Source: Eledone cirrhosa (taxonomy: Eukaryota). From it: DNA of 64,000 nt. Made by a program: the position numbers and the translations under genes. The stretch lies in assembly GCA_964016885.1 (NCBI GenBank), contig OZ024751.1, forward strand, positions 21,328,001 through 21,392,000. Direction: 5' to 3'. Below the pieces are notes generated by a model, which was not told the DNA's origin, did no database searches, and worked only from the letters and a program-made list of their open reading frames with translations. Of this stretch, positions 5,982-53,937 are shown piece after piece. Numbering within the stretch: the first letter of the stretch is position 1; each line of letters opens with the position of its first letter.

Positions 5982-6126
5982 AACGAAGGAAATGTGGTAA
6001 GGAACCAGGTGGACCATAACGCAACAAAGTACTCAATACTTAGGGTAGTAGAGTGGGTAATAGGAACGAGTAGGACCCCGACGTCGAAACGGCTTCAGCT
6101 CAGCCATCGGGGTCCTACTCCTTCCT
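5982..6126 (-). mobile_element. Palindromic (TA)n-embedded family A, collapsed copy
   Basis: aacgaaggaaatgtggtaagg...gtactcaatacttagggtag...ggaccccgac / gtcgaaacggcttcagctcagccatcggggtcc. Confidence 0.8.
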
Positions 6127-6356
6127 ATATATATATATATATATATATATATATATATATATATATGTGTGTGTGTGTGTGTGTGTGTGTGTGTGTGTGT
6201 GTGTGTGTGTGTGTGTGTGTGTGTGTGTGTGTGTGTGTGTGTGTTTGTGTGTGTGTGTGTGTGTGTGTGCGTAAAAGGTAAACAGAAATAACAACACAAT
6301 CCGTACAGTATATGGAAAGTATATATTAGGTTAACGCTAGATATTGCAGGAAGACG

Positions 6357-6394
6357 TTCTTAACGTTTCGGACGCTAGTCCTTCATCATAAGAA
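6357..6394 (-). ncRNA. Minimal hammerhead with C3 mutated (element about 6272-6435)
   Basis: Minus strand TTCTT-ATGATGA-A-GGAC tagc GTCC-GAAACGT-T-AAGAA, with palindromic AACGTT in stem III. Confidence 0.65.
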
Positions 6395-6476
6395 AGAATG
6401 AGAAATAAAATAGATTAAGGGAACGGGCGGGATACATGTATATATATATATATATATATATATATACACATATATA

Positions 6477-6560
6477 GGAAAAGAGTCAGGACCCCGACGG
6501 CTGAGCTCCGGCCGTTTCGACAGCTAGATCCGATCTAGTTCGGATCTAGCTGTCGAAACG
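6477..6560. mobile_element. Family A, subfamily B hairpin
   Basis: ggaccccgacggctgagctccggccgtttc-gacagctagatccga tctagt tcggatctagctgtc-gaaacg. Confidence 0.75.
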
Positions 6561-6595
6561 ACCATCTTTCTATTTCATTTTTTATTTCTTATTGT

Positions 6596-6633
6596 ATCTT
6601 CTGATGAAGGATTATTCTCTGAAACTTTCAGAT
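6596..6633 (+). ncRNA. Decayed minimal hammerhead, sister of 6357-6394 (element about 6565-6720)
   Basis: ATCTT-CTGATGA-AGGATTATTCTCT-GAAACTTTC-AGAT. Shares the downstream tail (agcgttaa.ctaatatat...gttatttctgtttac) with the 6272-6435 copy. Confidence 0.55.
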
Positions 6634-7355
6634 TCTTTTCCTACTATATTAAGCGTTAAACTAATATATTTCTTTATTGCGCTGCGTCGTTTGCTTCGTT
6701 ATTTCTGTTTACTTTTTGCACAGAGAGAGGGGGTGGGAGAGAGAGAGAGAGGGAAAGAGAGAGAAGATCCTGTTAAGGGTGAAAGCAGCGATTCTTTGCT
6801 TAAACTTTAATCGGTTATTTTAATAAATATATACACACACACACACACACACACACACACACATATATATATATATATATATATATATATGTGTGTGTGT
6901 GTGTGTGTATGAGTTTGAATTATTTTTCCCACATCTTACGTTAACTATTTTCCCATTTTGACGCTATAGTCACTTATATATTATGGAATACTGTTGGCTT
7001 CTTGCTACAATAATTTCTATACTTTTCATTTATATATATATATATATATATATATATATATATATATATATATATATATATATATATATATATAAAACTT
7101 ATTCGTTTCTTCTTTCGAATGTTACGTCTTCATCTATAACCCCACACACCTGCCCTCTCACTTCCCCCAACCCCACATCTGTCCAACTCCATCACCTCGT
7201 TGACTAACTTATCAAATATATCATAAGATATGTCGCCCAATAATAAGAGGTGATATCAGATATTAGATATCAGATATTACACTTATATCACTTTACACAT
7301 AATTCACATACTTTAACCCACTTGTTGTTTTACATAATTCATATATATATATATA

Positions 7356-7546
7356 GGAAAATGTTTGACCCCGACGGCAGAGCTCAAGCCGTTTGGACGG
7401 CTATTTCTGTCCAGAAATAGCCGTCGAAACGGCTTGAACTCTACCGTCGGGGTCAAACATTTTCCTATTACCCACTCTACTACCCTTAGTATTGAGTACT
7501 CTGGTGCGTTATGGTCCATCTGGTTCCTTACCACACTTCCTTGGTT
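7356..7546 (+). mobile_element. Family A fold-back element
   Basis: Hairpin of about 55 bp per arm centred near 7410, plus a tail of about 80 nt. Flanked by (TA)n. Confidence 0.85.
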
Positions 7547-7792
7547 ATATATATGTATATATTATATTATATATATATATATATATATATATATATATAT
7601 ATATATATATATATATATATATATATATATATATATATATAGATAGATATATATATAAACACCTTGCATATTTCTATAGGTACCTAGTGCCTGTTGAAAT
7701 ATCCATACCCTTTTATAATTTTTCTCCTTATTTAGAGAACAAAACGTTGTATCGTGCTGCTGTTTTTAGTGGCACTATCAACAAGTTTATAA

Positions 7793-7968
7793 TTGTTTCT
7801 ACTTTAGGCACAAGGCCAGCAATTACCCAGTGCATTACTGGTACTTTATTTTATCGACCCCGTAAGGATGAAAGGCAAAGTCAACCTCGGCGGGATTTGA
7901 ACTCAGATCGTAAAGGGACGTAACTATGCTGGAAAGCATGGCGTCCGACCCTCTACCGATACTGCCAA
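7793..7968 (-). mobile_element. SINE family 1, short variant
   Basis: gtttctactttaggcacaaggccagcaattacccagtgcattactggtac...gatttgaactc...ctctaccgatactgcca. Confidence 0.88.
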
Positions 7969-8088
7969 AGCTCTTACTTGCGACCTGATTTTGCGTGTGT
8001 GTCATTTTAACGGCCTGACCGCATGCGTTAGTCAGGAAGCGAAATATTGATTTACTGTGAGATTAGCAACCTTATAGTATGGAAATAA

Positions 8089-51782: not shown

Positions 51783-51990
51783 AAGGCGCGAGGCGGAGTG
51801 GCTAGAGAATTGGATTCGCAATCGTAAGGTTGTGAGTTCGATTCCCGGACCGGGTGATGCGTTATGTCCTTGGACAAGACACTTTATTTCACGTTGCTCC
51901 TTGTACCTGGAGTTGCGACCGATAGATAGTATTAGCAATTGGAAAGACCAATGGAAACATTGTTCCCTCGGTCCGATTTGACGAAAGTCG
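51783..51990 (+). mobile_element. CORE-like SINE family 2
   Basis: gagttcgattcccggacc...tatgtccttggacaagacactttatttcacgttgctcc. Confidence 0.7.
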
Positions 51991-52050
51991 ATCGACTGTC
52001 GATATATATATATATATATATATATATATATATATATATATATATATATA

Positions 52051-52249
52051 GGAACGAGTAGGACCCCGACGGCTGAGCTCAAGCCGTTTCAACGGCTAAT
52101 TCTGGATTTTAGTCCAGAATTAGCCGTTGAAACGGCCTGAGCTCAGCCGTCGGGATCCTACTCGTTCCTATTACCCACTCTACTACCCTAAGTATTGAGT
52201 ACTTTGGTGCGTTATGGTTCATCTGGTTCCTTACCACATTTCCTTCGTT
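52051..52249 (+). mobile_element. Family A fold-back element
   Basis: Hairpin plus tail. Both arms share the same variant (gtttcaacgg / ccgttgaaac). Confidence 0.85.
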
Positions 52250-52260
52250 ATATATATATA

Positions 52261-52419
52261 CATGGACACACTAGAAGAGGAAGACCAAGGTTAACGTATG
52301 TTGATGCCCTAAGGACAGACACTGGTCTGTTGGAGATGCAGGACATGGCAGCGATAATGAGGGACAGAGACCGCTGGAGAGAACTCGTCCATGGATCTCG
52401 GGAATTTTACCCGCCTTAG
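52261..52419 (+). mobile_element. RTE-clade LINE 3' end fragment
   Basis: HGHTRRGRPRLTYVDALRTDTG...[11 protein letters not shown], the typical RTE C-terminus. Flanked by (TA)n. Confidence 0.8.
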
Positions 52420-52957
52420 ATATATATATATATATATATATATATATATATATATATATATATATATATATATATATATATATATATATATATATATATA
52501 TATATATATATATTCAATAACAAACAAGACAAACACAGGGAATAACAAAGTCTTATTAGTTTTACGCATGGCCTAATGGTTTGGATACTTGACGTACGAT
52601 CGTTTATGTCGTCGTTTCGATTCCTGGACCAGCTGCTGCGTTGTGTTCTTGAGCAAAACACTTTATTTCACGTTGGTCCAGTGAACTCAGTTGAGAGTGA
52701 GTACCAGCAGTATCTGGGAAGTTAAATCCTGCGATAGACCGGCGTCCTATCCAGGGAGAGTCTTGTACTCTCATGCGCTTAACTCCAAAGAGACCGGGGA
52801 TAAGCGCAAGCCTGATGAACCTTCAGTTTAGAACAGCCATTAACTAAGTATACATATATATATACATATATATATATATATATATATATATATATATATA
52901 TATATATATATATATATATATATATATATATATATATATGTGTGTGTGTGTATATAT

Positions 52958-53130
52958 ATTTATTAAAATAACAGATTAAAGTTTAAGCAAAGAATCGCTG
53001 CTTAATCTTTGCTTAAACTTTAATCTGTTATTTTAATAAATATTTGCTCTACGGTTCTTATATATTTGATATATATTTATCCTTATCGAGCCCTCTTTGG
53101 ATTTTAGTCTTCAAATTTATTATTATAACT
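52958..53130 (+). mobile_element. Family C fold-back, collapsed copy
   Basis: ttattaaaataacagattaaagtttaagcaaaga...tctttgcttaaactttaatctgttattttaataa, plus the tail ttatcgagccctctttggattttagtcttc. Confidence 0.75.
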
Positions 53131-53528
53131 ATATATATATATATATGTGTGTGTGTGTGTGTGTGTGTGTGTGTGTGTGTGTGTGTGTCTGTGAGTGTGT
53201 GTGTGTGTGTGTGTGTGTGTGTGTGTGTGTGTGTGTGTGTGTGTGTGTGTGCATGTATGTATAATTGGTGCTGGATGCTTAAAGCGTCCATATGCGGTAG
53301 GCCGTTTGGGCACTCGATGCTCTCATAGAGGAGACTAGGGAAAAGCAGCTTCGTAGAATCAAGACGTATCTGAGGACCTTGCGATTTTCGGAGTCAGGTT
53401 CGATCATCACATCGATCGTGCCTCGAGCTGGTTGCCAGAGAAACGATTGTAATATGTCCAATAGAATTCCATTCGTCGCAACACTGATTCTCTTTTTTCT
53501 GTGATATATATATATATATATATATATA

Positions 53529-53715
53529 GGAAAAGAGTCAGGACCCCGACGGCTGAGCTCCGGCCGTTTAGACAGCTAGATCCGAACTAAGCTACCACCA
53601 GATTCCTGCCGTTCTAATATAGGTGGCATGGTTCGGATCTAGCTCTACTACCCTAAGTATTGAGTAATCTGATGCGTTATGGTCCGTTATGGTATCATAC
53701 CACACCCTCTTTGTA
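53529..53715 (+). mobile_element. Family A subfamily B, with long imperfect central stem and a deletion in the right arm
   Basis: gacagctagatccgaacta agctacc...ggtggca tggttcggatctagct, followed directly by the tail ctactaccctaagtattgagt. Confidence 0.75.
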
Positions 53716-53732
53716 ATATATATATATATATA

Positions 53733-53937
53733 GGAGAAAGTATGACCCCGACGGCAGAGCTCAAGCAGTTTCGACGGCTATTTCTGGACTAAAGATTTAG
53801 TCCAGAAATAGCCGTCGAAACGGCTTGAGCTCTGCCGTCGGGGTCATACTTTCTCCTATTACCCACTCTACTACCCTAAGTATTGAGTACTCTCGTGCGT
53901 TATTGTCCATCTGGTTCCTTACCACAACTCCTTCATT
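53733..53937 (+). mobile_element. Family A fold-back element
   Basis: Hairpin centred on ggactaaa-ga-tttagtcc, plus tail. Flanked by (TA)n. Confidence 0.85.

Follow-up and report, generated by a model that had tools for sequence, protein, structure and literature searches.

Short palindromic insertions with a hammerhead half-motif in Eledone cirrhosa, read as probable Penelope-like element 3' ends in (TA)n targets

What kind of element leaves a series of short, nearly identical palindromes in a single stretch of animal DNA, and how did each of them acquire its second arm? The question is raised by 64,000 nucleotides (nt) of Eledone cirrhosa (assembly GCA_964016885.1, contig OZ024751.1, positions 21,328,001 to 21,392,000, forward strand). 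This whole stretch is called the window here and all coordinates refer to it. Its DNA is of animal type and rich in microsatellites, and it holds nine copies of a palindromic repeat that we call family A. An earlier account made from the letters alone (the sequence-only reading) took family A for the 3' half of a hammerhead ribozyme mirrored through stem II, produced as snap-back complementary DNA (cDNA) of a retroelement. We read the copies as short 3'-end insertions of a Penelope-like element (PLE), made of the pseudo-long terminal repeat (pLTR) and a tail, or as a non-autonomous derivative of such an element, inserted in (TA)n targets by twin priming. For this reading as a whole we estimate a probability of about 0.58.

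The copy set was defined by blastn, which returned the same nine copies that had been counted before, six of them full palindromes and three partial, with one anatomy once oriented. A complete copy runs from (TA)n through an inverted arm without tail, a variable centre, a sense arm and a 78-nt tail to (TA)n again. The tail-less arm begins at a fixed ATAGG in complete copies, and the arms of the six full palindromes measure about 50-70 nt. The tail is found on one side only, in 8 of 9 copies and in every complete one. TA runs flank both ends of all eight two-ended copies, although copies 1 and 5 have a short run on one side. With a total length of only 140-220 nt, an insertion consists of an element end to which an inverted, 5'-truncated copy is joined head to head (complete in 6/9, partial in 3/9). 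The one-sided tail and the (TA)n setting of every complete copy had no place in the title of the sequence-only reading.

The full palindromes are copy 3 (7353..7546, +), with a 2-nt hairpin centre and a tail, the best snap-back candidate; copy 4 (8877..9065, +), joined at a 2-nt microhomology; copy 5 (11023..11228, -), with an 8-nt filler partly templated by fold-back; copy 6 (22037..22257, -), with a short duplication at its centre, used as the reference for read alignment; copy 7 (52048..52249, +); and copy 9 (53730..53937, +). In copy 4 the 78-nt tail occupies 8988..9065 (+), between two fixed ends that are the presumed start sites of reverse transcription. Among the partial copies, copy 1 (5985..6128, -) has the tail, a short tailed arm and a tail-less arm. 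Copy 2 (6474..6563, +) belongs to subfamily 2 and has a tail-less arm plus about 27 nt of the second arm, without tail; it adjoins the end of another hammerhead-bearing element at 6564-6717. Copy 8 (53526..53716, +), also of subfamily 2, contains a tail-less arm, an asymmetric centre of about 45 nt, a tailed arm with an internal deletion and GAAA lost to CTAT, and the tail. A TA run separates copies 8 and 9, which are arranged head to tail.

Parts of 7340-11240 are present in public runs coded as nine organisms, with at least half of its words found in only three runs, all from one sample of organism A. No RNA run was among those listed, which says nothing for or against expression. Four of the 15 listed runs were aligned to the tail and arm of copy 6, and runs with small shares (X4, X7-X12) do not enter the results. 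Aligning records numbered 20,493 of 17.1 million contigs in X1 (organism A), 24,409 of 12.5 million reads in X13, 239 of 17.6 million contigs in X5 (organism B) and 42 of 8.3 million contigs in X6 (organism C). The organism A sample may be the window's own source, so X1 is not independent support; the independent runs are X13 (raw reads from another study), X5 and X6 (other organisms). Results from these runs refer to the best 40 of 151 variants, the best 20 of 432 loose ends and the best 15 of 19 joints. In 94 contigs and 3,557 reads the tail-less end directly adjoins (TA)n, which identifies it as a fixed end. X1 depth falls across 22163-22186, in part through an alignment-edge effect and in part through copy 6's own centre, and no truncation rate or copy number was derived from this fall. 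A pile of X13 read ends at 22168 falls on an AATT site and was treated as a restriction-library artefact, and joints at 22118-22122 were set aside, as subfamily 2 diverges at that point. Exact-pattern scans for family A gave no match in viral contigs and none in metagenome contigs (twice). What a relative in X5 retains of 22057-22165 is chiefly a subfamily-2-like arm with the inner half of the tail; family A is thus not confined to one species.

The sense arm contains C-GAAA and a stem III of 4-5 bp with GAGCTC in its loop throughout, and then a GUC triplet and GGGGTC. The GAAA, stem III, NUH triplet and Y at 11.1 of a type I hammerhead are all present, and the sequence-only reading was right on GAAA, stem III, GUC and GGGGTC. 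Its palindromic loop TGAGCTCA applies to the main subfamily; GAGCTC is the only part of it that all three subfamilies have in common. In copy 4 the half-motif lies at 8945..8973 (+), with GAAA at 8945-8948, stem III and loop at 8949-8965, GUC at 8965-8967 (predicted cut after 8967) and the presumed 3' strand of stem I at 8968-8973. Dinucleotide shuffles of arm and tail gave the half-motif in 38 of 20,000 cases, and with GUC in 1 of 20,000. Across the 28 core or paired positions of the hammerhead model, variants were limited to C-to-U changes at 5 positions, 4 of them at CpG; changes of other kinds were seen at 13 of the 33 remaining arm positions (Fisher p = 9e-5, from a hand count made post hoc). 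We consider it likely that the family A arm is the 3' half of a hammerhead. As noticed before, the 5' core is missing: the window has 18 CTGANGA sites, all of them outside the copies. Judged from their letters, the copies themselves cannot be active ribozymes, because CUGANGA is absent from all nine.

Both arms stop within a narrow zone upstream of GAAA. The reach of the tail-less and tailed arms, in nt upstream of GAAA, is 14 and 17 in copy 3, 19 and 8 in copy 4, 17 and 17 in copy 5, 24 and 25 in copy 6, 16 and 23 in copy 7, and 21 and 21 in copy 9. Copy 1 has a reach of about 4 nt for the tail-less arm and a tailed arm without GAAA. Over these seven scored copies (2 and 8 being left out of the scoring), the tail-less arm is longer in two (copies 1 and 4), the tailed arm in two, and the arms are about equal in three. 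Junctions have overlaps of 1-2 nt or 2-8 nt of extra sequence, and the centres differ in all seven, in agreement with the earlier description.

These lengths bear directly on the proposal that a single tail-primed cDNA folded back in stem II and copied itself, its second end then being cut or joined at the fixed internal site. Since such a cDNA copies only what it holds, the tail-less arm cannot extend further upstream than the tailed one. Copies 1 and 4 have tail-less sequence that their tailed arm is missing, and so do copies of neighbouring families at 760, 1375 and 52956. Furthermore, tail-less arms occur solo (5863, 6762 and 41327) or joined to pieces that end within the tail. At 640-756 a tail-less arm is attached to a tail piece that ends short of the arm, and four opposite-strand joints in the public runs connect tail-internal points (22078, 22089, 22093 and 22109) to the start of the tail-less arm at 22171-22178. 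All of these lack a template for snap-back unless a later deletion is assumed each time; two independent cDNAs explain them directly. Direct pLTR repeats from partial tandems are a PLE feature; besides the head-to-tail copies 8 and 9, one public-run joint connects the arm end to the tail end, and no repeats flanking an open reading frame (ORF) were seen. Subfamily 2 arms also run straight into (TA)n at the same stop zone, without any mirror, in a loose end of 85 X1 contigs.

Some copies do bear signs of fold-back. Copy 3 forms a perfect hairpin around a loop of 2 nt, the fold-back filler of copy 5 lies on the same axis, the centres of copies 6 and 9 coincide by eye with a small hairpin in a shared extension, copy 8 retains a recurring asymmetric centre, and PMC3846280, in its available part, reads palindromes at PLE junctions as self-priming. 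Fold-back therefore probably occurs in some copies. As a general route snap-back is not favoured, failing as it does in 2 of 7 scored copies, in three neighbour-family copies and at the tail-internal joints, and we judge it unlikely as the explanation of the family. Twin priming is the route that we would choose for most copies, with some reserve.

The sequence-only reading had drawn its idea of self-copying from variants that it considered private to both arms of single copies. Most of them turn out to be subfamily markers or CpG changes that are frequent in public data. In X1, the changes that mark the copies at 7353 and 53730 have a depth share of 31% at 22141 and 39% at 22166, and the change common to both arms at 52048 is of CpG type and is present in 83 X1 contigs. 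The left arm at 52048 has one mismatch to three other copies and two to its own partner arm. The arms of one copy share the same subfamily markers and differ by 0-3 independent changes, and it does not follow from the variants that each palindrome was copied from itself.

The placing of the mirror axis in or near stem II is supported by the centres and by the hairpin of the shared extension. This extension is a non-mirror sequence beyond 22178, common to 70 X1 contigs and one X6 contig. In the X6 contig, its far end GCTATTT complements the arm's AAATAGC in a 7-bp pairing (seen by eye in that one contig), and the small hairpin it holds has its axis at the centres of copies 6 and 9. Such pairing is what a native long stem II predicts, and the extension can be read as pairing in the way its 5' strand would. 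Of the two centres that had been proposed to look like native stem II, the one at 11145-11185 is a mirror to 17 nt upstream of GAAA plus the 8-nt filler, and is unlike the shared extension. The imperfect centre of copy 8 at 53571-53645 does recur, 25 of 30 letters matching by eye a loose end of 1,311 X13 reads. Folding of 53569-53630 gave z = 0.46, which is not a fair test because the stretch excluded the closing arm.

From the observed layout, fixed ends, hammerhead-half motif and narrow stop zone, we infer a route in four steps. The GIY-YIG endonuclease of a PLE would nick both strands of a (TA)n run. Both nicks would then prime reverse transcription on an element RNA that has not cleaved itself, one starting at the end of the tail and the other at an internal site 78 nt upstream, giving the tailed and the tail-less arm. 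Both cDNAs would usually stop at most about 25 nt upstream of GAAA, presumably at the 3' strand or the distal hairpin of a long stem II, so that CUGANGA would not be reached. Finally, the two 3' ends would be joined head to head through microhomology of 1-2 nt, short fillers or local fold-back.

A PLE-type origin is very likely, and is the part of the reading in which we have most confidence. Published work is cited here from the available part of each source. According to PMC8557442, PLE insertions are strongly truncated on the 5' side, where a truncated copy in inverted orientation is often attached, and have a tail of 30-40 bp on one end only and (TA)n targets; PMC3846280 gives the same layout. 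The three structural features are present in family A, namely the inverted truncated copy joined head to head, the one-sided tail between fixed ends and the (TA)n target. This match allows the element class to be named and is counted for PLE origin; family A is probably a PLE member of a known insertion kind whose layout has already been published. The endonuclease-bearing (EN+) PLEs of those two papers (Penelope/Poseidon, Neptune, Nematis, Hydra and Naiad) resemble it in strong 5' truncation, in the inverted truncated copy at the 5' end with a head-to-head palindromic junction, and in a tail on one end with (TA)n targets that hide any target duplication. Family A differs from them in being far shorter, at 140-220 nt, with both arms stopping in one narrow zone, and in having no ORF linked to it; the Naiads, for their part, are described without canonical hammerheads.

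PMC8557442 counts the origin of inverted, tailed PLE insertions as a task still to be done, and a possible biochemical basis is given by Poseidon of Anolis (PAc) in vitro (PMC11167929). There the PLE protein cuts and extends both target strands, reverse transcription starts at two sites whose distance equals the tail, and uncleaved RNA is preferred; the available part leaves the steps after two-strand cutting unvalidated. Family A is alike in having a tail bounded by two presumed start sites, with both strands presumably cut and extended, and in the hammerhead placed just upstream. Its copies span the predicted cut site, which fits the uncleaved RNA template of PAc. Reverse transcription starts without target homology in PAc, whereas the internal end of family A lies at TAT, able to pair with (TA)n, and the two start sites are not tied to inverted copies in the available part of PMC11167929. 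In PAc the ORF starts in stem II. In family A a single sense frame is open across arm and tail in five of six copies, as would be expected of a repeat overlapping the start of an ORF in the PAc manner, but without a start codon; a database search with it gave no hit among 5 candidates, and an open frame of 47 codons in one of three frames has an estimated chance of about one in four.

For the hammerhead itself, PMC4209133 reports minimal type I motifs with a long helix II and a palindromic loop 3 in PLE repeats, and pairs of hammerheads on opposite strands 100-700 bp apart. Family A has the same long helix II, C11.1 before GAAA and palindromic loop 3, and likewise pairs of motifs near each other on opposite strands, whereas the 5' half of the core is absent from its copies. 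Metazoan non-LTR (long terminal repeat) retrozymes (PMC7761336; bioRxiv 10.64898/2026.07.22.740005) are also non-coding, carry a type I hammerhead and are presumed to be mobilised by PLEs; many of the invertebrate motifs have a stable helix III, as family A does. A retrozyme, however, is built of whole-ribozyme units in head-to-tail tandem, its monomer ending at the cut site. Membership in this group was rejected, since family A is dispersed and inverted, joined head to head, spans the cut site and has neither CUGANGA nor head-to-tail units with a whole hammerhead.

Several observations weigh against the reading as PLE ends made by twin priming. The tail of 78 nt exceeds the 30-40 of published PLEs, and helix III, with 4-5 bp, is longer than usual in metazoan PLE hammerheads and closer to the fungal or protist variants or to invertebrate retrozymes (PMC4209133, available part). 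None of 135 window frames matches a Pfam family of a reverse transcriptase (RT) or GIY-YIG partner, the single exception being a sub-threshold zf-RVT hit in a LINE-like (long interspersed nuclear element) remnant; this is not decisive, because truncated copies are not expected to carry RT and GIY-YIG. Rfam gave no hammerhead match for the window (best 150 of 302 rows), for 700-1650 or for the family A arm, and its matches on family A copies were of microRNA type and below threshold. That silence carries no weight, because a complete motif at 20764 was missed as well. The extension is displayed for 30 letters, ending about 5-11 nt before the expected start of CUGANGA; the motif was not seen there, and the sequence-only reading's prediction of it upstream in non-inverted relatives is thereby neither borne out nor refuted. 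The far end of its pairing comes from a single contig, the X1 consensus having an agreement of 0.59 and a mismatch at that place. Lastly, the fold-back signatures of copies 3 and 5 count here too, and deletion at palindrome centres after insertion could give unequal arms under any model.

An alternative for the palindromes as such is a non-autonomous master that was itself a palindrome, a hairpin with a fixed centre transcribed whole and mobilised by a PLE, in which CUGANGA was lost once and the centres were later eroded by cruciform repair. The extension of organisms A and C could equally be such a fixed centre, as could the recurring centre of copy 8, and the identity of subfamily markers in both arms agrees with it. 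All seven scored centres differ, however, and several mirror the sense arm to 21-25 nt instead of showing the shared extension. Non-inverted truncated arms exist, and four neighbouring families have the same layout with stop points of their own. We therefore regard a palindromic master as improbable, more so than snap-back.

A DNA element, such as a miniature inverted-repeat transposable element (MITE), a foldback or a Helentron-like element with a coincidental likeness to a hammerhead, would account for short, non-coding, high-copy insertions at TA, and for the fact that neither CUGANGA (nine copies) nor an RT partner (135 window frames) was seen. The window provides a true MITE for comparison at 10803-10982, at a TA site, with perfect terminal inverted repeats (TIRs) of at least 34 nt and ends identical over the 36 letters compared, which we take to recall Tc1/mariner. 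MITEs of this type are short, TA-flanked and built on inverted repeats, like family A. Their inverted repeats are the two termini around a fixed spacer, whereas those of family A are internal on one side and enclose a variable centre. The outer ends of family A match at only 7-12 of 25 letters in all eight two-ended copies, and thus form no TIRs. With non-inverted ends and centres that differ in 7 of 7 scored copies, the assignment to MITEs or TIR transposons was rejected, and that family A is a retroelement rather than a MITE, as previously proposed, is supported. The rarity of the half-motif by chance and the complete hammerheads of same-layout neighbours argue likewise, which makes a DNA element very improbable. 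Palindromes are a known amplification artefact, and no public-run record listed spans the whole aligned stretch, so fold-back chimeras of library or assembly were also weighed. The independent changes between the arms of a copy, the 3,557 reads with the tail-less end at (TA)n in the independent raw-read run, and the presence of opposite-strand joints in contigs and reads alike leave this explanation hardly credible.

The literature searched gave no description of PLE stubs with a mirror in stem II, nor of twin priming as a PLE mechanism; subscription papers, supplements, Repbase and Dfam lay outside that search. Compared with what is published, the narrow stop zone in stem II and the twin priming appear to be the features without an account among PLEs, and family A may already be listed in the supplements of PMC8557442 or PMC4209133, in Repbase or in Dfam. 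A further, doubtful possibility is that family A belongs to a self-standing class of hairpin retro-elements, PLE-mobilised non-autonomous RNAs with a non-cutting hammerhead, whose stem II would be a programmed signal for stopping and joining two opposite-strand cDNAs. If so, related animal genomes would hold very many near-perfect palindromes of 100-140 bp. These would be a standing source of double-stranded RNA (dsRNA) and of cruciforms, and would preserve in nature a record of how PLEs integrate at the two-strand step.

Nine copies in 64 kb, together with four families of the same layout, offer both ends and the junction within about 200 nt. Counts of arm length across the genome can tell twin priming from snap-back, so that the origin of PLE inverted repeats becomes countable in one genome. 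PLE stubs of this kind can be mistaken for MITEs or microRNA hairpins in annotation, and family A copies, if transcribed, would form long dsRNA hairpins.

The four other families have tails of roughly 60-90 nt, and those with complete hammerheads are counted as internal controls for the PLE reading. With our own descriptor the window has 5 complete hammerheads, whereas 100 block shuffles averaged 0.04 and never had more than 1. The second family (760-1114 and 20585-20811) has a complete minimal type I hammerhead with CTGATGA at 1010 (+) that folds as expected, and a non-inverted relative carries the whole motif at 20764 (-). The third (1375-1600, partial relative at 4-91) has a complete hammerhead at 1511 (+) with CTGATGA, an 11-bp stem II and a GUA triplet. 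At both 760-1114 and 1375-1600 it is the tail-less arm that holds the complete hammerhead, while the tailed arm is cut short in stem II. The fourth (1170-1360) is a palindrome of the GAAAC...GTC half with a one-sided tail, and its centre CTGAAGA may be native. A tail motif of 11 nt is common to this family and family A at a similar distance from the triplet; since its folding register is not the same in both tails, we claim no common structure for it. The fifth (8287-8513, 52956-53129, 640-756, 5863-5907, 6762-6830 and 41327-41370) has the same layout, including solo tail-less arms, with GAAA and a possible stem III but CAGAAGA at the position expected for CUGANGA.

Further complete descriptor matches lie at 381 (-), which folds as minimal type I, and at 40901 (-). 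Around copy 2, the related (74%) ends at 6273-6410 (-) and 6580-6717 (+) carry hammerhead-like motifs and face outward. On the sense strand, the stop zone of family A (about 22172-22186 in copy 6, plus the extension) has T-rich runs ending in AG and resembles a splice acceptor. An overlap of PLE repeats with the end of an intron is known, and the Drosophila virilis case (PMC4209133, available part) makes an intron 3' end near the stop zone a candidate.

Outside these families, broken frames at 36890-38299 (-) are a probable LINE remnant, where the weak zf-RVT hit (E = 0.0007) is below the Pfam cut-off. Lastly, a repeat of about 139 nt at 24855-25186, arranged in tandem and apparently also dispersed, is likely a short interspersed nuclear element (SINE); together with the microsatellite load it may be reminiscent of cephalopod genomes, and short motifs similar to it are found near 24135-24376, 31397-31624 and 48199-48645.

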